Below, one piece after another: positions 12,714-51,844 of a stretch of 64,000 nt of DNA. Under the pieces are notes generated by a model that was not told the DNA's origin, made no database searches, and saw nothing but the letters and a program-made list of their open reading frames with translations. The DNA is from Candidatus Latescibacterota bacterium (GTDB lineage: Bacteria > Latescibacterota > UBA2968 > UBA8231). Location of the stretch: assembly GCA_965217585.1 (NCBI GenBank), contig OZ244561.1:2144001-2208000 (forward strand), given 5' to 3'. The position numbers were made by a program, and so were the translations under genes. Position 1 is the stretch's first letter; each line of letters opens with the position of its first letter.

Positions 12714-12790
12714 TCAAAGTTTGGCCGGTTTGCTAACCGCGAACCGATTGCCGAGGCCAAGGCGCGAGCAGCGCCGTAGCGCAAAGCGTG
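12714..12790 (-). repeat. Degenerate attC site
   Basis: Aligns with attC 44228-44315 (GCCGGTTT...GGCCAAGGCGC...GCGCCG.AG); cores mutated. Confidence 0.65.
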
Positions 12791-22682: not shown

Positions 22683-22893
22683 CTACTTGGCCCGTCGCTG
22701 CTTTGCCAACCACTCCCACAGGTCAGGATCGCTGTATGCATTTTGCCACGCCTCCACGTGGCCCCCTTCGGGGTACACAGTAAAGCGGACATTGCCTCCG
22801 GCAGCCTTGAGAGCATCAACCATCTCCTGTGATTGTTTCAACGGCACTGCCTCGTCTTGCGCACCGTGGAAAACCCAGGTCGGGACCTCCTTT
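22683..22893 (-). pseudogene. C-terminal fragment of a phospholipase/carboxylesterase-like hydrolase
   Basis: PTWVFHGAQDEAVP...YPEGGH...W; fused directly to a half attC. Confidence 0.7.
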
Positions 22894-22959
22894 CCGCACA
22901 GCGGGTTGCCGAAGGCCAAGGCGGTGTAGCTGCCGCAGCGCAACACCGAGGTGTTAGAC
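22894..22959 (-). repeat. attC left and central portion (right end deleted)
   Basis: Minus strand GTCTAACACCTCGGTGTTGCGCTGCGGC...CCTTGGCCTTCGGCAACCCGCT. Confidence 0.8.
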
Positions 22960-23794: not shown

Positions 23795-23921
23795 GTGGAT
23801 AATCGCAACCAATCCCGCGAGGCTGGAATGTTCTACGTAACTCCTTGCGATAACTTGAGATAGCACGATTCTTCTGAGATCTGACGCGCCTAGCACCGCC
23901 GAGCAAAACGAGTTGTTAAGC
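23795..23921 (-). repeat. Long hybrid cassette-junction element, copy 1 (internally deleted)
   Basis: TCGCAACC...TACGTAACTCCTTGCGATAACTTGAGATAGCACGATT block shared with 43594 and 45401; GTTAAGC core. Confidence 0.8.
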
Positions 23922-43070: not shown

Positions 43071-43553
43071 TCAGCTATTTCTTTCATAAGACTTTTCTCC
43101 CTTCGATATCTCCATGATTTTCAGTCGGATAGGTTCTGCCATGGTTGATAGGTCCGAGTCGGCAAGAGCCTGTTTCCCAGTTAGTGAAGGAAAAACGTAC
43201 TTAATGCGATCCATAACGGACTTACATGGAAATACGTGTACATGCAAATGAAATATTTCTTGTCCCGCACTTTCGCCATTTGCTATCCAGAGTCGGATAC
43301 CAGAACAAGGTATAATTTCCTTAGATGCTCTCGCAATTAGATGAGCAACTTGCATCAAGGGAGCACATAGATTATTGGGCAAACTCCATATATTTTCGTA
43401 GTGCTCTCGGGGAATTACGAGGGCATGGCCACCTACAGAAGATTGCCTAAATCGATCTAAAAAGCAGATTACTTGATCGTCTTCGTAGAGAATTTCTTCC
43501 GGTTTTTTCTTGGCGACAATCTGACAGAAGATGCAATTAGGATCTGAATTCAC
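43071..43553 (-). CDS. HIT family hydrolase (cassette)
   Basis: CIFC, GHALVIP, HLHVH. Confidence 0.9.
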   Translation of the reverse strand: MNSDPNCIFCQIVAKKKPEEILYEDDQVICFLDRFRQSSVGGHALVIPREHYENIWSLPNNLCAPLMQVAHLIARASKEIIPCSGIRLWIANGESAGQEIFHLHVHVFPCKSVMDRIKYVFPSLTGKQALADSDLSTMAEPIRLKIMEISKGEKSYERNS

Positions 43554-43593
43554 CGTAAACGCCCTCTAACTTGAAACAGTTTTATTCCATTGT

Positions 43594-43791
43594 CGATAAC
43601 TGCTTGTACTCGAACAATTGGTTCAGGGAATCGCCCTTATCTGACCCGAAGGTATGTATCCGTGTAAACAGTCGCAACCTATACCGCGAGGCTGGAGTAT
43701 TCTACGTAACTCCTTGCAATAACTTGAGATAGCACGATTATTCTGAGATCTGATGCGGCTAGCGCCGCAGCGCAACACCGATGTGTTATGT
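43594..43791 (-). repeat. Long hybrid cassette-junction element, copy 2 (complete, 198 bp)
   Basis: Minus strand ACATAAC + attC left arm + conserved block + CGAGTAC-AAGCA-GTTATCG. Confidence 0.85.
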
Positions 43792-43837
43792 GCCGTGAAA
43801 AAATGCGATGGCCTATAAGACTGATCCTCAGGCGAAA

Positions 43838-44116
43838 TCAGATCAACTCGATGCGGAGCTTTTTGCCCAGAGCCCGCGCTACGCGGTCCATTGTCTGTAG
43901 AGTTACGGAGGGATTAGACGCGTCAAGCAGACGGTCCAGCGCGGATCGACTAGTTTGCATGCGCTTGGCCATCGCCGATTTGGACAGCTTGTTTTCCTCC
44001 ATGAACTGACTCAACTGATAGGCAATAACGCGTTTCACGGCCGTTGCCTCTGCTTCACTGAGCAGGCCCTCATCTGCGAGGAACTCATCAAAACTGCTGC
44101 CGACATGTCTTTTCAT
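43838..44116 (-). CDS. XRE/HTH antitoxin
   Basis: MKRHVGSSFDEFL...MAKRMQTSRSALDRLLD..VTL. Confidence 0.85.
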   Translation of the reverse strand: MKRHVGSSFDEFLADEGLLSEAEATAVKRVIAYQLSQFMEENKLSKSAMAKRMQTSRSALDRLLDASNPSVTLQTMDRVARALGKKLRIELI

Positions 44117-44224
44117 CGTGCCTCCCTGAGCATCGTTAGTCTGGATCGTGCCAACGTGAGATCGCTGGCGGCGGGTCTTCTCACTTTTCTTGGATCGAAA
44201 CAGATCGCAGAAAGCGGTGGTCAT
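44113..44224 (-). pseudogene. RelE/ParE (Gp49-like) toxin, internally deleted
   Basis: Only about 11 N-terminal codons plus the KKSEKT..DLTLARSRL C-terminal piece remain. Confidence 0.6.
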
Positions 44225-44227
44225 GGC

Positions 44228-44315
44228 ACCTAACGTCTGCCGGTTTACGAAGCCGCGTAGCGGGTAGCCAAAGGCCAAGGCGCAATAGCGCCGCAGTGTG
44301 GATTGAATGTTATCG
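44228..44315 (-). repeat. attC site (near complete)
   Basis: Minus strand CGATAAC...GCGCCTTGGCC...CGTAAACCGGCAGACGTTAGGT. Confidence 0.8.
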
Positions 44316-44327
44316 GTTGCTAAGAAA

Positions 44328-44597
44328 TCACACGGCCTCAAGTGGCGATAAGTCCTCCTCTTTCATAGGAGAAAGATCAAGGCTGCGTAAAACCTCGTTG
44401 ATCTGAGCCGCCGTCATCTGCTCTGGTGCCGTGATTTCTAAACCAATGGGTTGACCTTCAGGGCCAAAATCCACTAATAAACCTGCATCTCTTGACTCTG
44501 TTCGTACACTTTTCACACCCGAAGCGGCCGATAAGTACAGATATGCGGCTAAGGGCTTCCCTTTACGGTAGGTAATTTCCAAATAGTGTTCTCGCAT
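44328..44597 (-). CDS. DUF2283-domain protein (putative antitoxin)
   Basis: AAYLYL...LLVDF..G.PIGLEI. Confidence 0.75.
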   Translation of the reverse strand: MREHYLEITYRKGKPLAAYLYLSAASGVKSVRTESRDAGLLVDFGPEGQPIGLEITAPEQMTAAQINEVLRSLDLSPMKEEDLSPLEAV

Positions 44598-44621
44598 AGT
44601 TTGCCCCAAAATGCCGGTTGT

Positions 44622-45371
44622 TCACGATGTCTCTTTGCGCGCAAGAGCAATCAGCCGCTTTGAGCTAGTCCCATACGCACTGCCTTCCAAGTCCCCATAT
44701 AGTTGAGTATTGCTAAACCCAGCTTGCAAGAGACGGTCTTTCAGTTCTTGGCCAGAGTACAACGTGTGGTGAAACTTGAACGATTTTACCTGCTCATCCC
44801 GGATCAGGAGCCACTCGTTGCGAATCCTCGTCCAATCATCGAAGATCTCGCGGCGTTGAACGAGCAATGTCCCGTCGGGATGCACCTCCGAGGAGGTCGC
44901 AGCGAACACCTTGGCCAACCACTCTTTACTCACCAGATCCATTACGAGGGCTCCCCCAGGTCTGAGGCTCTCGTAAATATTGCTGAGCACTCGCAGATCC
45001 TCGTCCTTGTCATCGAAATAGCCGAAGGACGTAAACATGTTGAGCACCAAGTCGTACGATGCGGATCGCACAAAACGACGCATGTCATCCTGCACAAACT
45101 CAACGTCTAATTTCCGCTCGTTTGCTCGCGCCGTAGCTTTTTGCAGTAGGAACGCGGTAGAATCAACGCCCGTTACGGAAAATCCTCGCTCGGCCAAGAC
45201 CGTGGAATGTCGACCGGGGCCGCAACACAGATCGAGGATATGTGTCCCGCTGAACTCCACCAGCGAAAGAATCTTGTCGACTTGATCTTCCGCAGATTGA
45301 AATCGCTCTTCCGGGAACAGATAGGGATACATTTCCGTCCAGAAGTCTTCGTTTTCAAACCATTCGGACAT
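44622..45371 (-). CDS. Class I SAM-dependent methyltransferase
   Basis: ILDLCCGPGRH, FTSFGYF. Confidence 0.9.
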   Translation of the reverse strand: MSEWFENEDFWTEMYPYLFPEERFQSAEDQVDKILSLVEFSGTHILDLCCGPGRHSTVLAERGFSVTGVDSTAFLLQKATARANERKLDVEFVQDDMRRFVRSASYDLVLNMFTSFGYFDDKDEDLRVLSNIYESLRPGGALVMDLVSKEWLAKVFAATSSEVHPDGTLLVQRREIFDDWTRIRNEWLLIRDEQVKSFKFHHTLYSGQELKDRLLQAGFSNTQLYGDLEGSAYGTSSKRLIALARKETS

Positions 45372-45400
45372 AGGACTCCAGTTTCTTGATTTTCATTGGT

Positions 45401-45581
45401 GGATAACTGCTTGTACCCGAACAATTGGTTCGAGTAATCGCCCTTATCTGACCCGAAAATACGTATCCGTGTAAACAGTCGCAACCAATACTGCGAGGGT
45501 GGAGTATTCTATGTAACTTATTGTAATAAATTGAGATAGAACGATTATTCTGAATCGGGCACGGCTAGCACCGCAGCGCAA
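45401..45581 (-). repeat. Long hybrid cassette-junction element, copy 3
   Basis: Aligns with 43594-43775; left core lost. Confidence 0.85.
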
Positions 45582-45584
45582 ATC

Positions 45585-45765
45585 TCACCGCGTTCGCAGT
45601 CGGACACGGCCTGATTCTACGATTGCGAGTTTGCCCTCAAGCCTCGACAATATCTCTTCCCGTCGGAGGAACGATGAAAGAAGCTGTAGTATTATGGAAG
45701 TGACCGAAAGCGGCGATCACACCGGCTACAGTGCGAGGAAGATCCGCGTCGATGATGAATTGCAA
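45585..45765 (-). pseudogene. DUF5615 PIN-like toxin, internally deleted and frameshifted
   Basis: MQFIIDADLP N-terminus joined to ...GKLAIVESGRVRLR C-terminus; catalytic middle absent. Confidence 0.7.
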
Positions 45766-45771
45766 ACCGAC

Positions 45772-45996
45772 TTAGGACGCAGGTAGAGGATGCGCTTCTT
45801 CTGCTTCTACGAGTTCCTCCGCGTACTCAAGAGCGGCCCGTATATCCGCGTCGATAATGCCATATTCCTCACAGACTTCTTCCGGGGTTGCCCCTCCTGC
45901 GAGGCTCCCAATAATTCGGTGTACTGGCACTCGGGTTCCCCGAATCACCGGCTTGCCATGACGGATCGAGGGATCAATTATAATTCGTCCATTCAT
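45772..45996 (-). CDS. DUF433 antitoxin
   Basis: RIIIDP..HGKPVIRGTRVPV...DIRAAL.YA. Confidence 0.9.
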   Translation of the reverse strand: MNGRIIIDPSIRHGKPVIRGTRVPVHRIIGSLAGGATPEEVCEEYGIIDADIRAALEYAEELVEAEEAHPLPAS

Positions 45997-46144: not shown

Positions 46145-46747
46145 TCACAGTTTTGTCCGGTCTGTAAGCCCGTTTATTCCTCGCCCTGCCAATAGTCGGA
46201 TTCGCTGCACAATGTCATCTATGCTGGGTGAGTATTGCCCCTCTGTTGAGACATGAACTGTGGGCACGTTGAAATCCGGAGCTGTATAGTCGTCAGGAGG
46301 CGACATCTCACCTGTTTTCCTGTAGATTTCAACGCGCTTATCGCCGTGGTAGAACTCCCGATTTGGATCATCCAGACCCCGCTGGAGATGGCGCTTAGCC
46401 GCCACCATCCCATCAACGGAGCATACGACAATGAAAGGAGTGCACAATTCAAGGATCTTGGGCATCCTTGGTTCCCAAACCCTGTGCTGAAAGGCCGCCT
46501 CAATAACGATAGAGATCTTACCGGCTAGATACTGATTCACTATCTCGAAGAAAAAATTGGAGACTACGCCATTGGTGTCCGGCGGAAGCTGATCGTGCTT
46601 GACGCCATGGGTATTGACATAGCCTTCCTTGATCTCGTCGCGACTGATAACCGGCATCCACAATCGCTCAGCGAGCCTCTTGGATAAACTCGTCTTCCCT
46701 GATCCCGGCCGGCCTGTGACGATAATGCATTTGGGTTTACTGCTCAT
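46145..46747 (-). CDS. P-loop kinase (AAA_33-like)
   Basis: GRPGSGKT, ISRDEIKE. Confidence 0.85.
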   Translation of the reverse strand: MSSKPKCIIVTGRPGSGKTSLSKRLAERLWMPVISRDEIKEGYVNTHGVKHDQLPPDTNGVVSNFFFEIVNQYLAGKISIVIEAAFQHRVWEPRMPKILELCTPFIVVCSVDGMVAAKRHLQRGLDDPNREFYHGDKRVEIYRKTGEMSPPDDYTAPDFNVPTVHVSTEGQYSPSIDDIVQRIRLLAGRGINGLTDRTKL

Positions 46748-46842
46748 GTTTCTGGCTCTTTCACAGGAGAAAGATCAGGGCTGCGTAAAACCTCGTTGAT
46801 CTGAGCCGCCGTCATAATTAGCTCCTCAGCGCTGCGTTGACC

Positions 46843-47662: not shown

Positions 47663-48106
47663 TCATCCTGACTCAACTTGACCAATTTTCGCTATGATCG
47701 AGCGCAAATCCGGATCTGAAAACTGATCTGACTTCAATACTTTGCCGTCCTCCCTGAATATCGGCTTACCCTGTTCATCTAGCTTGCTCATGTTGCTGCG
47801 GTGTACTTCATCAAAGAGTTCTTCGGCAATGTCCTGCAGACCATGCGTGATAAACGTACCCAGCAATACGTAAAGCATGTCGGTAAGGGCGTCTGCGATC
47901 TCGACGATGTCGTGGTTATTCACGGCCGCTCGATACTCCTCTAGCTCCTCCAAAAACATCTGGATACGCCCTTGGCTTATCTCCGCCGGCACCTTTGCCG
48001 TAGGCGTGCGCTCCATGTATGCCTGGAACACCTCGTGAAAACATCGCACGCTATCTAGCTGATCTTTCACCTGGCATCTCCTGACTGCTCTGCCGAATAC
48101 CTTCAC
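47663..48106 (-). CDS. MazG-like all-alpha NTP pyrophosphohydrolase
   Basis: EELEEY, EIADALTD, EVHRSNMSK, REDGKVLK. Confidence 0.88.
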   Translation of the reverse strand: MKVFGRAVRRCQVKDQLDSVRCFHEVFQAYMERTPTAKVPAEISQGRIQMFLEELEEYRAAVNNHDIVEIADALTDMLYVLLGTFITHGLQDIAEELFDEVHRSNMSKLDEQGKPIFREDGKVLKSDQFSDPDLRSIIAKIGQVESG

Positions 48107-48127
48107 AGGTAGTTTATGAGTCTACGA

Positions 48128-48238
48128 ACCTAATTGCTGGTGTATGATGGTTGTGGCTTTACGAATCTGGAGCGAAGCGGAGGGTTGCCCGCAGGGCCAA
48201 GTGGCGAATCGCCGCGTAGCGAAAAGCCGATGTTAGGC
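48128..48238 (-). repeat. attC site
   Basis: Minus strand GCCTAACATCGGCTTTTCGCTACGCGGCG...CTTCGCT...CGTAAAGCC...ATTAGGT. Confidence 0.7.
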
Positions 48239-48285
48239 GATCTTCGGATTGGTACAGTTAACGGGATGTTAGCCGCAGTGCAAAG

Positions 48286-48963
48286 TCAGAATTCTGTTGT
48301 TAATTGGCAGTCACTACACCATGATATAAATGATGATTGAACTTCTCTATAAAACTTATCGAATGAGGGGCTATAGTCTCGCATGGTTTCGGGGTTTATG
48401 CTACTTACCATTAGCCTAGCATGAAGTTGATTTTTTACAGATTTTGTTCCAATAATTCTATCTTTTAACCATTGGTCTGGATTTCGTAATTCATCTGTAT
48501 TATCTGGCTGGTCTACATCAGATTGTACATACCCCGCTGTCTTTAAACCGGCTACATCAGCTACAAACCATGATTCAAATTTAGGGACCTGAATTACTAC
48601 AGATATTCTTTCAGGTAAAGATTGAAGCCTTGTATCATCTTGGGCACTTCTAAACCAATCATCAATTTTGCCCTTTAAGTCTAAAAGTAGATCTGCACAA
48701 GTGCTATAAAAACCTGCATCAATTACATCTTTTAAATCTACAGTGACTATAATGTGATACGGTTTCTTAAGCCTAACTAGTGGTGTTAGCTGATCCTGAA
48801 TGTTACGAATGATTCCTCCATAGCCACCTGCATTAACAATAGGAATATCAAAGTTAGAGGCATTTACTATTCGGCTGACTATGGATGGATAACACCTGTA
48901 TTCACCGGCACCTTCGACTACAAATCCAAGAGGAGGTCTTGATATCAAGTTGACCTCAGACAT
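48286..48963 (-). CDS. DUF4276-family (TOPRIM-like) protein
   Basis: VVEGAGE, ESWFVAD, SPSFDKF; AT-rich; overlaps the ATPase stop. Confidence 0.7.
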   Translation of the reverse strand: MSEVNLISRPPLGFVVEGAGEYRCYPSIVSRIVNASNFDIPIVNAGGYGGIIRNIQDQLTPLVRLKKPYHIIVTVDLKDVIDAGFYSTCADLLLDLKGKIDDWFRSAQDDTRLQSLPERISVVIQVPKFESWFVADVAGLKTAGYVQSDVDQPDNTDELRNPDQWLKDRIIGTKSVKNQLHARLMVSSINPETMRDYSPSFDKFYREVQSSFISWCSDCQLTTEF

Positions 48964-50374
48964 CAGTTGGAACACCTCCGAGTAATCCTTTAACCCAAAG
49001 TTGGCCAACTTCCCCCATCATTATGTCGCTATCTGGAAATAGGTCTTGTAAGTTTTTAAATTTTGTACCCCCAACTGTGGTTCTACTTGCTACTAAAACT
49101 TCATCAGGTTTTACTCTTTCAAGCACTTGTTGCGAATGAGTTGTTATGACGACTTGCAGATGACGTTTTTCTATTACTTCTCGAATATGATCCATTAGGC
49201 TGTGTACAGCCCAAGGGTGTAAATTTTGTTCTGGTTCTTCAATGATCATAGTAGTATGAGGAGGATGGGTTTCGAGAGCTATTAAGATTGCAAGCGCTCT
49301 CAAACTTCCATCAGAAGACTCCCAAGATTCTATACCTCTGCCTACGATAGATTCGACAAACTCAACGTATTCCTTACCTGCACGGACCTGACTTGACTTC
49401 ATTGTTTCAATATGAGGTGCAATAGAACCAAAAGTATCGGTGATTCTTTCCCAATTATCTTGGAAGTCAGGCGATTTTAAATGTCTCAAAACCGATGGTA
49501 CATTGTCACCAGATGCAGATAATTGCGAAGGAGACCCTATTTTCTGTTCAATTCGAAGTTCATTTAACAATAAGTCATATCTACGAATAGCCTTCAACTC
49601 ATATAAGAATCCGTTAAATTGGTCACTGTGGTCTAAATATGTTCTTAAAGTAGGATTCAGAAATGAGTCATGAGGAGCTAGTTTCTTCTTTTTTTTCAAT
49701 TTATCTTCATGTAAATCATAGTTAATAATTGACTGAATAACTCGACTGAATTCATTTTTTGAATGGATTCTATCTTTCAGAAATCCAAATCCTAGCCATT
49801 CTAAAAAGTCAGGAATACTATCTTTGGTTATGGGCGGTATTGTTTGGAACTTCGTTATTCCTCCCTTACCTCTCTCAAGAATAAATGAGGATGGAAACGT
49901 TAAATTTTCTTTTGGTATAATACCGTTTTCATAATCCGAACTTGAGTGAAGGCGCTTTAATTCTTCGACCGCGAGCCCTTGATTTAAGGAAACCTTTTCA
50001 TTTGTAATCCTTATCGAATCTGATTGTCCTGCTCCCATTTCTATTAAATGGTTTGCGGTGATTGGTAGATAATCAGGGCCATCATAAAACGGAGGTGAAA
50101 ACATATTTACCGTGTATTGTAACGAAATTTTTCCCTGACGTAATCTTGATTTCGGTATGGCTTTAGGGATTAGCCCACTGAATCCTCCTTGACTGCTAAC
50201 AGCGTTGAGAATACCTCTTGAAGGAATCGCTGAGAGAAATTCAAGAGCTTTTACCAGGTTAGACTTCCCAGATCCATTCGCACCGACTAGCACAGTTAAG
50301 CGGTTAAATCTTACATGGTCGTCTATAATGCTTTTAAAATTCTGAATCGAGATATCCTGAATCATATTTAACAA
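48956..50374 (-). CDS. ABC/SMC-like AAA_21 ATPase
   Basis: Walker A GANGSGKS, signature SSDG, Walker B IIEEPE..LHP, TTHS H-loop. Confidence 0.9.
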   Translation of the reverse strand: MLNMIQDISIQNFKSIIDDHVRFNRLTVLVGANGSGKSNLVKALEFLSAIPSRGILNAVSSQGGFSGLIPKAIPKSRLRQGKISLQYTVNMFSPPFYDGPDYLPITANHLIEMGAGQSDSIRITNEKVSLNQGLAVEELKRLHSSSDYENGIIPKENLTFPSSFILERGKGGITKFQTIPPITKDSIPDFLEWLGFGFLKDRIHSKNEFSRVIQSIINYDLHEDKLKKKKKLAPHDSFLNPTLRTYLDHSDQFNGFLYELKAIRRYDLLLNELRIEQKIGSPSQLSASGDNVPSVLRHLKSPDFQDNWERITDTFGSIAPHIETMKSSQVRAGKEYVEFVESIVGRGIESWESSDGSLRALAILIALETHPPHTTMIIEEPEQNLHPWAVHSLMDHIREVIEKRHLQVVITTHSQQVLERVKPDEVLVASRTTVGGTKFKNLQDLFPDSDIMMGEVGQLWVKGLLGGVPTDV

Positions 50375-50399
50375 ACCTCTTGATAAAGGTTGATTGCAT

Positions 50400-50570
50400 T
50401 GCGGCTAACTACTGTATTCCCCACGTACATCGTCTAACCTACTCAAAGTAAGGGGTCAGGCGATGTACATCAAAGACTGATTTCTGGCCCATAGAATTCG
50501 CAACCCTTTATTCGTCAATGATCTTAAGGTTGTATTCGCATAACTATTTGTTCATCAATGACTTATAAAA
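50400..50570 (-). other. attI-like site at the head of the cassette array
   Basis: GTTAGCC core, second core GTTAGAC inside a hairpin, direct repeats TAAG.TCATTGA.GAA.AAA..GTT..GCGAAT, IHF-like CATCAATGACTTA. Confidence 0.5.
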
Positions 50571-50704: not shown

Positions 50705-51844
50705 CTATGTCGCCTTCTCCCCCTCCTGCCGCCGCCAAATCTCATACGGATTCTCCCGATTTGCCAGCGGCAAAGACACCCGCGTGCCCAAGCGCTGCGA
50801 CTCGTGTACCGCCATGATCATTTCCAACGCCGCTCGCCCGTCCTCGCCGCTGGAACAGGCCCGCACCGGGCGATCCTCCTCAATGGCTTGGATCAATTCG
50901 CGCACAATGATCAAATTGCTCTGGTGCGTGCGCTCGCCCGCCGAGTATTGTTCCCACTCGTCCAACAGCACCCGTTCCCAAGTGCCGTTTTCCTCGCCGG
51001 GGATCCACATGCCCTGGCGATAGATGTACATCTCGCCGTTGGGCGAATTGCGCAGGGCGATGATGCCCTCACTGCCGTGTGCCTCAAAACCGAACCAACG
51101 GCTATTGAACCCTTTTGGATAGCCCGGTTGCGATTCAAAATGAGCGGTCACCCCATTCGCAAAAACGTAGTACGCCGCCACCCCGTTGCCGGCGATCAAA
51201 CCGATGCGCTCGTCCCCTTCCCGCACATCGGCCAATGTCACCTCGCGCCCATCCTGCGTGACGTGCCCGTGAGCCCAAACCACCTCGGCCCCGGCGAAGT
51301 AGCGCATACTGTCCATCATGTGCGTGCCCAAGACCATCAGATCCTGAGACCCGGCCCGGTGGTCGGACTTGCCGTGGCTGCGCAGCACTTGTAGCTGGCC
51401 GATAGCGCCCTCGTCAACCAGCTTTTTGCCGTACTGCTCGTAGGGATTGGCGCGCCGGTGCGCCACTGCGGTCTTGACGCCGTGCTCCTGACAGGCCGCC
51501 AACAGGGCGTCGGCTTCGCGCAGAGAGGGTGTCAGCGGCTTCTCGATAAACACGCCGCGCACCCCGGCCTCGGCACAGGCGATGACCATGTCGGCGTGGC
51601 AGTCGGGCATCCGCGGACAGACGCTGACTATATCCAAGTCCTCCTCGGCGAGCATCTGGCGGTAATCGGCGTAGAGCCGCTGGGCACCCGTGCGCTCGCC
51701 GGCTGCGGCGCGGCCCTCGGGATCGGGGTCGGCCACAGCGACTAAATCCACTTGCTCCAAGTCCCGGTAAACGGTTGCCAGCCCGTGGCCGTAGTCGCCA
51801 GCACCCGTGCGCCCGATGACTCCGGCTTTGTAGCGCTTACTCAT
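50705..51844 (-). CDS. Gfo/Idh/MocA oxidoreductase
   Basis: GRTGAGDYGHG, FIEKP, GTHMMD. Confidence 0.88.
   Translation of the reverse strand: MSKRYKAGVIGRTGAGDYGHGLATVYRDLEQVDLVAVADPDPEGRAAAGERTGAQRLYADYRQMLAEEDLDIVSVCPRMPDCHADMVIACAEAGVRGVFIEKPLTPSLREADALLAACQEHGVKTAVAHRRANPYEQYGKKLVDEGAIGQLQVLRSHGKSDHRAGSQDLMVLGTHMMDSMRYFAGAEVVWAHGHVTQDGREVTLADVREGDERIGLIAGNGVAAYYVFANGVTAHFESQPGYPKGFNSRWFGFEAHGSEGIIALRNSPNGEMYIYRQGMWIPGEENGTWERVLLDEWEQYSAGERTHQSNLIIVRELIQAIEEDRPVRACSSGEDGRAALEMIMAVHESQRLGTRVSLPLANRENPYEIWRRQEGEKAT

Follow-up and report, generated by a model that had tools for sequence, protein, structure and literature searches.

What kind of sequence joins two gene cassettes when the site between them begins as an attC and ends as something else? 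The question arises in a 64,000-nt window (the whole stretch of DNA analysed, G000:C1:2144001-2208000) of the genome of a Candidatus Latescibacterota bacterium, here G000, a single 7.32-Mb contig of 59.5% GC with an estimated contamination of 6.9%. On its minus strand lie three copies of a hybrid unit of about 190 nt overall, in which an attC-like left arm runs into a conserved block of about 160 bp. A sequence-only reading had proposed either a portable module of cassette promoter (Pc) and attI site or a small non-autonomous element that targets attC, and had recognised no described class. Our preferred answer, to which we give a probability of roughly one half, is that the block is an attI-like leader of attC-site clusters that have no integron integrase (CALINs) in one Candidatus Latescibacterota genus, probably with an outward promoter.

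Three hybrid units in the window

Sequence inspection, with a core-pattern search and a repeat finder, placed the three minus-strand copies where they had first been noticed. The 33-nt core pattern, with up to three mismatches allowed, matched two sites against 0.00 expected from 100 shuffles, and the repeat finder returned a 117-nt family with three copies (D1) and a 162-nt family with two copies at 88% identity (D2). The units and their parts are as follows.

43600-43791, minus strand: copy 2, full unit (attC-like left arm plus block, end ...CAAGCAG); the junction lies between 43600 and 43599
43765-43791, minus strand: attC-type left arm of copy 2, R''-like ACATAAC plus the TTGCGCTGCGG motif; motifs common to the canonical attC sites of the genome
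43649-43677, minus strand: promoter-like TTGCGA-17-TACCTT of copy 2, facing the downstream gene (TTGCGA 43672-43677, TACCTT 43649-43654; read from the sequence)
43609-43627, minus strand: palindrome of copy 2, an inverted repeat of 7 bp around a 5-nt spacer (consensus CCCGAAC-CAATT-GTTCGGG), with imperfections in copy 2
43600-43609, minus strand: terminal GTACAAGCAG of copy 2, its last G the proposed crossover base (information profile)
43591-43599, minus strand: cassette-type start TTATCGACA after copy 2 (cassette-start signature)
45407-45598, minus strand: copy 3, full unit; the junction lies between 45407 and 45406
45571-45598, 45479-45484, 45456-45461 and 45415-45435, minus strand: arm, TTGCGA, TATTTT and palindrome region of copy 3 (sequence motifs)
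23803-23921, minus strand: copy 1, the arm with only a 5' half-block, ending TTGCGA, then TTATCCACAC (profile positions 3-83)

Copy 1 had been described as internally deleted; it is the 5' half of the unit only, and the same half-copy with the same downstream sequence stands in five loci of other genomes (L026, L027, L028, L081 and L082). It heads a second array; a divergent 468-aa gene without a Pfam match lies about 230 nt away. Copy 2 is orthologous to copies in G003 and G021 (90-94% identity). The motif resembling the integration host factor consensus agrees with it at 7 of 9 defined positions by manual count, and differs among copies.

A dispersed family of one genus

Searches with BLAST across the genome and its relatives, which the first reading had proposed, revealed a dispersed genus family that is not specific to the window. 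An nhmmer profile built from five copies found 10 copies in G000 at E<=8e-8 plus one weak match, those outside the window lying near 0.61-0.62, 1.78, 2.00, 3.28-3.29 and 3.45 Mb. BLAST detected the block, with 1-6 matches per genome, in 17 of the 24 other genomes of the genus and in none of 16 genomes from four other genera of the class. A pattern scan of metagenomes returned five loci, one of them a true relative (L084, with two copies, GFO/IDH/MocA oxidoreductase gene then block); no intI was found in these loci. The BLAST survey alone comprised 70 matches. The boundary and context analyses below use 44 copies from fetched loci, some of which represent the same genome twice, and the related genomes are not independent.

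In an alignment of 23 full copies from many genomes, mean column identity is 79%. A tree of 30 copies, poorly resolved with none of its 27 inner branches starred, shows no clustering of copies from the same genome; near-identical copies within a genome are absent, and the median end branch is 0.11. Eight of the 23 aligned full copies, including those at G000 3290319, 3276414 and 1778411, have an extra 6-12 nt (TAGCAC.T.G.G-like) between GATAAG and GGCGATTAC (alignment columns 109-119); copies 2 and 3 of the window are of the short form.

Cassette starts at the 3' end of the block

The 3' end is kept in 33 of the 44 copies, which represent 25 distinct downstream contexts. Across these contexts, information stays high through CAAGCAG plus TTA, falls to about 0.15 bit at +5/+6, rises slightly at +7 to +10 (G, A/C, A/C, A) before it returns to background; 18 of the 25 begin with TTA. 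Behind the block the pattern reads TTA NNN G M M A (T G), just as it does behind canonical attC right ends; an extended R'' box of the local attC family explains it.

The first bases of an integron cassette match, in inverse complement, the R'' box in its own attC. For each context, the first 9 nt plus C were taken, and their inverse complement was searched for, with at most one mismatch, in the 3.4 kb downstream. A match was found in 7 of the 25 contexts, at +0.5 to +1.8 kb, against a mean of 1.62 and a maximum of 5 for mismatched pairs; a count of 7 was reached in none of 300 shuffles. Applied to canonical attC right ends, the test succeeded in 5 of 18 cases, a set that includes some doubtful sites. 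By this measure, the DNA after the block starts like a true cassette, and does so as often as the DNA after an attC. Three of the matches are followed by a complete canonical attC (G000 3290319, G000 620272 and L080:3092), three by attC-like sequence (L072:3734, L073:3712 and L079:2632) and one by no attC (L079:12058); at L079:2632, a non-canonical ATATAT core is present at both the cassette start and the R'' box. The result of this test suggests that the last G of the block occupies the place of the R' G of an attC.

The proposal that GTTA serves as an R core is thus supported by the boundary profile, the start signature and the R''-complement test. As in an attI, a GTT-type R core is present and the cassette begins right after its G; because the cassette boundary coincides with the end of the block, we regard this 3' end as attI-like. 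The core is preceded, at a distance of 8 nt, by a 7-bp inverted repeat, and in copy 2 AGTTA occurs three times in direct order (manual reading). The methyltransferase cassette that follows copy 3 is present in 19 of 30 relatives. Among the 12 loci fetched, it is preceded by the block only in G000; G014 and G041 have the same cassette start (TATCCACC...) behind an attC-like right end.

Copies at array heads and a series of 5' truncations

The first reading had placed every copy at a cassette junction. This location holds, and in relatives copies are found at array heads too. In 16 loci the GFO/IDH/MocA gene has 93% identity or more to that of the window, and in 8 of these a block copy starts 27-112 nt after this gene (two of the eight copies are interrupted by a 425-aa gene). 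Genomes differ in the first gene that follows the head copy, and two head junctions with different first cassettes pass the R'' test (L072:3734 and L073:3712). Other conserved head positions are the g3276 type (four loci), the g1778 type (two loci) and the copy-1 type (six loci), the last of which adjoins a divergent gene that encodes 468-478 aa and lacks a Pfam match.

The copies whose 3' end is retained form a nested series. Their match to the profile starts at positions 2-8 in 22 copies, and otherwise at 13, 18, 18, 25, 28, 57, 90, 102, 114, 117, 123 and 123; eleven of the 33 are counted as starting at position 13 or beyond. In 6 of the 44 copies, this start is at least 90, which leaves only the last 35-75 nt without the -35 hexamer; the shortest forms are ...CCCGAAC-CAATT-GTTCGGG-TACAAGCAG, and they stand before five different genes. 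Copies without the 3' end are the orthologous copy-1 group (six) and a few others. The internal copies are homologous to the head copies, and one cassette, MRKDL..., follows a head copy in G002 and L084 and an in-array copy in G011. Provided that the head copy counts as an attI, the internal copies have the composition of delta-attI-type junctions, with a variable 3' attI part that replaces attC.

At the half-copy locus L081 (in G012), an R''-like box about 2.85 kb downstream exactly matches, in inverse complement, the start that follows the half-copy (ATTATCCACA). Behind this box, just before a HIT gene, comes a mini-site of about 30 nt that ends CAAG/TTAGAGG, and this mini-site is also found in the window between copy 2 and the HIT gene (43553-43599). 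The R''-like box and the mini-site suggest that the TTGCGA end of the half-copy may be a second crossover point.

The attC-like arm on the 5' side

A local attC left arm does precede the in-array copies, as had been noticed; the point at which arm was said to switch to block is in fact fuzzy by about 15 nt, and in some relatives it lies elsewhere (L067:10483 and L067:6365). GCTAG had been counted as plain attC arm. Together with the next ~20 nt it belongs to the block family, and it is present in head copies as well. Array-head copies, which have no upstream cassette, also open with an arm-like stretch and ...CTAGG(C/T)G.GT.., so the arm is part of the unit, with a fuzzy switch point. An empty-site comparison was possible for copy 3: the same DUF433/DUF5615 cassette has a normal attC in G021 and G022, and copy 3 of G000 is identical to the left arm of that attC through TTTGCGCTGCG and then continues into the block.

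The junction of different attC left arms (copies 1, 2 and 3, the L071 type and the L075 type) with the block at about the same point is what insertion into attC would produce if the block were a mobile element, small and non-autonomous, or a relic end left by an attC-targeting element. Such elements are known, and several copies per genome would fit. IS1111-attC elements lie inside attC sites in fixed orientation, and group IIC-attC introns reportedly lie within attC in fixed orientation as well and carry outward promoters. The block has no transposase, reverse transcriptase, ribozyme domains or element ends: it is 160 bp long with no open reading frame (ORF), no match to an intron or any other RNA family in Rfam, and no terminal inverted repeats (no pairs in copy 2 and small internal ones only in copy 3). 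The rest of the attC is not restored beyond it. A DDE transposase occurs in just 1 of the 25 downstream contexts, the copies show neither near-identity nor same-genome clusters in the tree, and those at array heads are orthologous across species. With no inverted ends, near-identical copies, mobile-gene partner or attC right arm, the attC-targeting element put forward in the first reading is poorly supported, and we consider an origin of this kind distinctly unlikely.

The remark that the left arm pairs poorly with the right end, and that the unit is not a normal attC hairpin, agrees with both duplex energies and folds. Arm-to-end duplexes of five hybrids reach -13 to -16 kcal/mol, against -20 to -31 kcal/mol for arm-to-arm duplexes in 7 of 9 canonical attCs scored, and whole-site folds of the single-stranded DNA give z-scores of -0.87 and -0.69. 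The unit, at ~190 nt and with ends that pair poorly, therefore lacks the R''-L''/L'-R' hairpin of 57-141 bp that characterises an attC. These values also bear on the idea of a decayed long attC with an expanded centre, a functionless fossil, which would account for the R''/L''-type arm at the start, the GTTA at the end, the loose likeness of the last ~20 nt to attC right arms (GTTCG ... A-rich ... GTTA) and the lack of an integrase. Such a fossil sits badly with ends that pair poorly and folds no better than shuffles, with recurrence at array heads, and with a mean column identity of 79% in 23 copies from many species and loci, which points to constraint; we find it very doubtful.

A model for the proposed attI-like leader

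Under the preferred reading, the unit of attC-type left arm and ~160-bp block would be the leader of CALIN arrays. Its 3' end (...GTACAAGCAG/TTA, the slash marking the joint) would be the double-stranded crossover partner at which cassettes were joined, in the role that elsewhere falls to the R' end in attC or to the R box in attI, and we infer that an IntI made these joints. One copy would head the array beside a conserved chromosomal gene, and internal copies would replace most of the attC of the upstream cassette, as in delta-attI-type junctions. Unequal recombination between the arm of the unit and the attC arm of another cassette could place the unit behind that cassette with the local arm upstream, and such arm-to-arm recombination would leave no special 5' joint. 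The varied cassettes on the 3' side could stem from integrase-type exchange at CAG/TTA or from deletions between copies of the unit. TTGCGA-17-TACCTT with the short leader would drive the next cassette, so that internal copies may restart transcription.

A bolder version, tentative and rather improbable in our view, treats the unit as a portable and self-contained 'array seed' in which an attI-type insertion point is combined with a promoter, with an attC left arm as its 5' end. Arm-to-arm recombination would carry it into any attC and to new chromosomal loci, where it would found and subdivide arrays with an integrase acting in trans, none being resident; alternatively, the unit may be a living intermediate of an attI arising from an attC.

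Promoter-like hexamers, palindrome and RNA

By manual count, TTGCGA-17-TACCTT of copy 2 agrees with 7 of 12 positions of the Escherichia coli consensus, and its counterpart with TATTTT in copy 3 with 8 of 12. TTG and TA..T are the best-kept hexamer positions, in most of the 23 aligned copies. Upstream of a RecA-like gene (G000:C1 ~4297400-4297680, L012; its identity is a reading of the N-terminus) stands TTGACA-17-TATCTT, so the organism seems to use -35/-10 promoters. An outward promoter in the block is probably present; the hexamers make it plausible, if weak, and we infer its activity from them.

This promoter part raises the alternative that the block is nothing more than a conserved promoter and 5' leader, a regulatory module of accessory genes spread by ordinary recombination with no role as a recombination site. 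Copies are always oriented with a same-strand gene close upstream of which they stand: an ORF of at least 60 aa starts 4-135 nt downstream in 41 of the 44 (crude ORF call). The 5' truncations retain the gene-proximal part, the hexamer positions TTG and TA..T are conserved, the palindrome could be an operator, and the paralogues are old and stable, as the median end branch of 0.11 indicates. Such a module does not predict an R''-defined cassette boundary exactly at the last base of the block, which would put the block outside the downstream cassette. Nor does it predict 25 partners joined at one nucleotide, since illegitimate recombination would give ragged joints. In addition, 6 of the 44 copies lack the -35 hexamer, and the hexamers are weak against the consensus. 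We rate this explanation as rather unlikely.

RNA-library contigs from Logan, drawn from four sponge and coral metatranscriptomes, cover the block and bridge both neighbours. Contigs of such libraries span 0.05-0.20 of the stretch, those of the four 0.08-0.20; three of the four libraries matched mostly at <99%, contigs of this kind cannot give start, strand or level, and stretches that they leave uncovered carry no meaning. The sponge and coral source of these contigs is the only hint at the habitat. Presence in such contigs, the 5' leader position and one conserved hairpin would suit a structured cis-regulatory RNA or a small RNA. Its consensus fold, however, has -6.27 kcal/mol with a covariation term of -0.71 and a two-sided change in 1 of 22 pairs; single-sequence folds lie near the shuffle mean; and in the palindrome none of eight predicted pairs shows a two-sided change, only one-sided (wobble) ones. 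Rfam gave no match in the whole window at gathering thresholds, and with E up to 5 in 43500-45700 only a chance snoRNA match outside the block. An RNA element is, on this evidence, highly improbable.

Two further ideas were dropped. The palindrome was considered as a LexA/SOS box, and its 5-nt spacer, set against GAAC-N4-type half-sites, gave no link. A short frame, TTG TTC GGG (MFGYKQ...), in two copies was considered as coding; by reading, it changes at all codon positions and contains a stop in some copies. The region upstream of the RecA-like gene has GAAC-N4-type half-sites, possibly an SOS box of the lineage.

Evidence that weighs against an attI-like leader

Several results weigh against the preferred reading, those on the integrase among them. 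No gene of G000, or of any of the 31 genomes of the genus, passes the TIGR02249 cut-off: the best match in G000 has 84 bits against a cut-off of 265 and is a conserved single-copy Xer-like gene present in 31 of 31 genomes of the genus. The same profile search found no integron integrase in any of the 18 block-bearing genomes. Better intI-like pieces occur in three genomes of the genus only (G015, G016 and G017), all three without the block: two neighbouring pieces (251 and 161 bits) that lie in different frames in G015, where intI reaches the contig start; a fragment with a stop in G016; and in G017 a 374-aa recombinase beside an unrelated gene. Nothing block-like stands beside these pieces (no similarity found), and tblastn with the G015 IntI pieces returned no match in 80 GFO loci. 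The block is never next to intI in the genomes examined; the neighbour of the head copy is the GFO/IDH/MocA gene.

The boundary evidence has its exceptions: 7 of the 25 contexts do not begin with TTA, 18 of the 25 are without an R'' match, and the small rise at +7 to +10 could also reflect nothing more than fading homology. No inverted partner of GTTA was identified adjoining the core, so the L box proposed in the first reading stays putative. The block was not found at the GFO-proximal head of G000 itself. Nested 5' truncation would also result if selection retained a gene-proximal leader. To locate attC sites we used our own three-seed profile and not the IntegronFinder model. On the side of expression, a consensus promoter scan does not call the hexamers, whose weak match is below threshold, and the RNA contigs, which cannot give a start, cross the block both ways and show none.

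The unit is accordingly not filed here as a proven attI, because there is no intI and the integrase-binding boxes are putative. With no intI present, the site would be either a fossil or served by an integrase in trans. As for the portable 'Pc + attI' module first proposed, an attI-like insertion point is favoured by the GTTA crossover at the 3' end; present-day activity cannot be assumed, given the lack of intI.

Relation to known systems

To our knowledge, attI sites are known in detail for only a few integron classes, always beside an integrase. With attI and Pc of the integron platform, the block shares its place at the array head, a double-stranded, non-hairpin nature, a GTT-type core followed by varied cassettes, and promoter-like hexamers that face the cassettes from about 45-80 nt upstream of the joint. 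It differs in occurring with no intI nearby or in the genome, in up to about 10 copies per genome at several loci, and in having a 5' end homologous to an attC left arm; its L box and accessory integrase-binding repeats are only putative. The block is also longer, at 160-200 bp, than the complete attI1 site, which is given as 65 bp in the available part of PMC12901181.

That source also describes, in the same part, delta-attI-type cassettes of class 1 and 2 integrons, in which attC is replaced by a 3' attI part of 14-244 nt with a fixed crossover end (PMC12901181). The verdict that the unit belongs to no described class was for this reason too strong, since delta-attI-type remnants that replace attC are described there. 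The likeness lies in a variable retained length upstream from a fixed crossover core. In contrast to the delta-attI cases covered in that text, the block keeps part of an attC left arm, is mostly retained at its full ~160 bp and has uncultured Latescibacterota without an integrase as hosts (PMC12901181).

Promoter-bearing gene-less cassettes of Vibrio superintegrons are likewise non-coding, lie within arrays and switch on downstream cassettes, as the accessible portion of PMC11014356 has it. They have their own attC and unrelated sequences, whereas the block has no attC of its own, forms one conserved family and also marks the array head (PMC11014356). No attC follows the block, and the next cassette begins immediately. 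At attG sites, too, cassettes insert into double-stranded DNA that is neither attI nor attC, and their expression needs a nearby promoter; attG is described in the sections at hand as a loose GWT motif with no long conserved sequence, unlike the block, a conserved and repeated 160-bp module (bioRxiv 10.1101/2022.09.11.507474).

As attC-bounded cassette arrays without a neighbouring intI, the arrays resemble CALINs, half of which are in genomes without intI according to the available text of PMC4889954. A conserved leader or attI-like element is not described for CALINs in that text (PMC4889954), and IntegronFinder, as presented there, annotates only the known attI sites of classes 1-3, by exact match (PMC4889954). 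Literature searches, judged by title and the start of the abstract, returned no paper on Latescibacterota integrons and no conserved CALIN leader; supplementary tables may list more delta-attI or attI variants.

What the locus points to is a genus of uncultured Latescibacterota that keeps a repeated leader at the heads of, and inside, integrase-less arrays whose joints look integrase-made. If this is true, the block offers a concrete sequence for testing the recruitment and expression of cassettes where no integrase is resident; delta-attI-type junctions would extend from clinical class 1 and 2 integrons to environmental chromosomes; and the attC-like 5' arm would be a testable hint on the origin of attI sites. 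Should the promoter part alone be true, the block would still be a family of internal array promoters in a phylum with none known.

Cassette arrays and neighbouring genes

The copies sit among small genes in one direction (PRA-PH/MazG-like, GNAT, P-loop kinase, DUF433, methyltransferase, HTH, HIT, glyoxalase and NUDIX), and in every cluster blocks and attC-type matches are on the same strand. Between the genes lies a repeat family with an R'' box ending TAAC, an L'' that pairs with L', and a right end ...AAAC G/TTA. A first structural scan for attC with strict R''/R' rules missed all real sites and was discarded. With at least two attC sites and no neighbouring integrase in the window, and no intI found, the arrays are of CALIN type. 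Their further features are listed here.

12722-12787: attC-type site (profile search)
22856-22959, minus strand: attC-type site of the second array (nhmmer E 5.7e-14)
43071-43553, minus strand: HIT-family gene downstream of copy 2 (Pfam PF01230, E 3.1e-20)
44229-44317, minus strand: canonical attC-type site of the local family, between a 93-aa ORF and an HTH gene (nhmmer E 2.3e-19)
44622-45371, minus strand: methyltransferase cassette gene downstream of copy 3 (Pfam PF13649, E 7.8e-19)
48143-48238, minus strand: attC-type site with a degenerate right end (nhmmer E 2.6e-15)
48286-50374, minus strand: low-GC two-gene insert, a 472-aa AAA_21/AAA_15 ATPase and a 240-aa DUF4276 protein (Pfam; GC 34-45% against 59.5% for the genome)
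50705-51844, minus strand: conserved GFO/IDH/MocA oxidoreductase gene bordering the array (Pfam PF01408)

The AAA_21 and DUF4276 pair matches a candidate defence system of PADLOC (HEC-01A 4.5e-129, HEC-01B 1e-52). This HEC-01-type insert (low GC, ~48000-50500) lies between the GFO gene and the first attC, the place of the leader block in relatives.

Just upstream of copy 3 (45600-45780, minus strand), the partner gene of DUF433, which encodes 120 aa in G021 and G022, is shortened in G000 by an internal deletion of ~190 nt, and looks like a broken toxin-antitoxin-like cassette. A 60-nt direct repeat of 97% identity (family D4) occupies 44358-44417 and 46756-46815. One copy lies inside the 93-aa ORF, which has no Pfam match; the other is a short frame overlapping the start of a kinase-like gene (46145-46747), and this frame also precedes block copies in relatives (L067:10483 and L073:8752).

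Elsewhere in the genome, at G000:C1:1778411-1781669 (L009 8409-11669), a block copy stands before the genes of a 451-aa AAA_15/AAA_21 ATPase and of a 539-aa protein. The latter has no PADLOC match, and the best PADLOC matches of the ATPase are NsnB, PDC-M55A and HEC-03B, which makes the two genes a second candidate defence pair directly behind a block.

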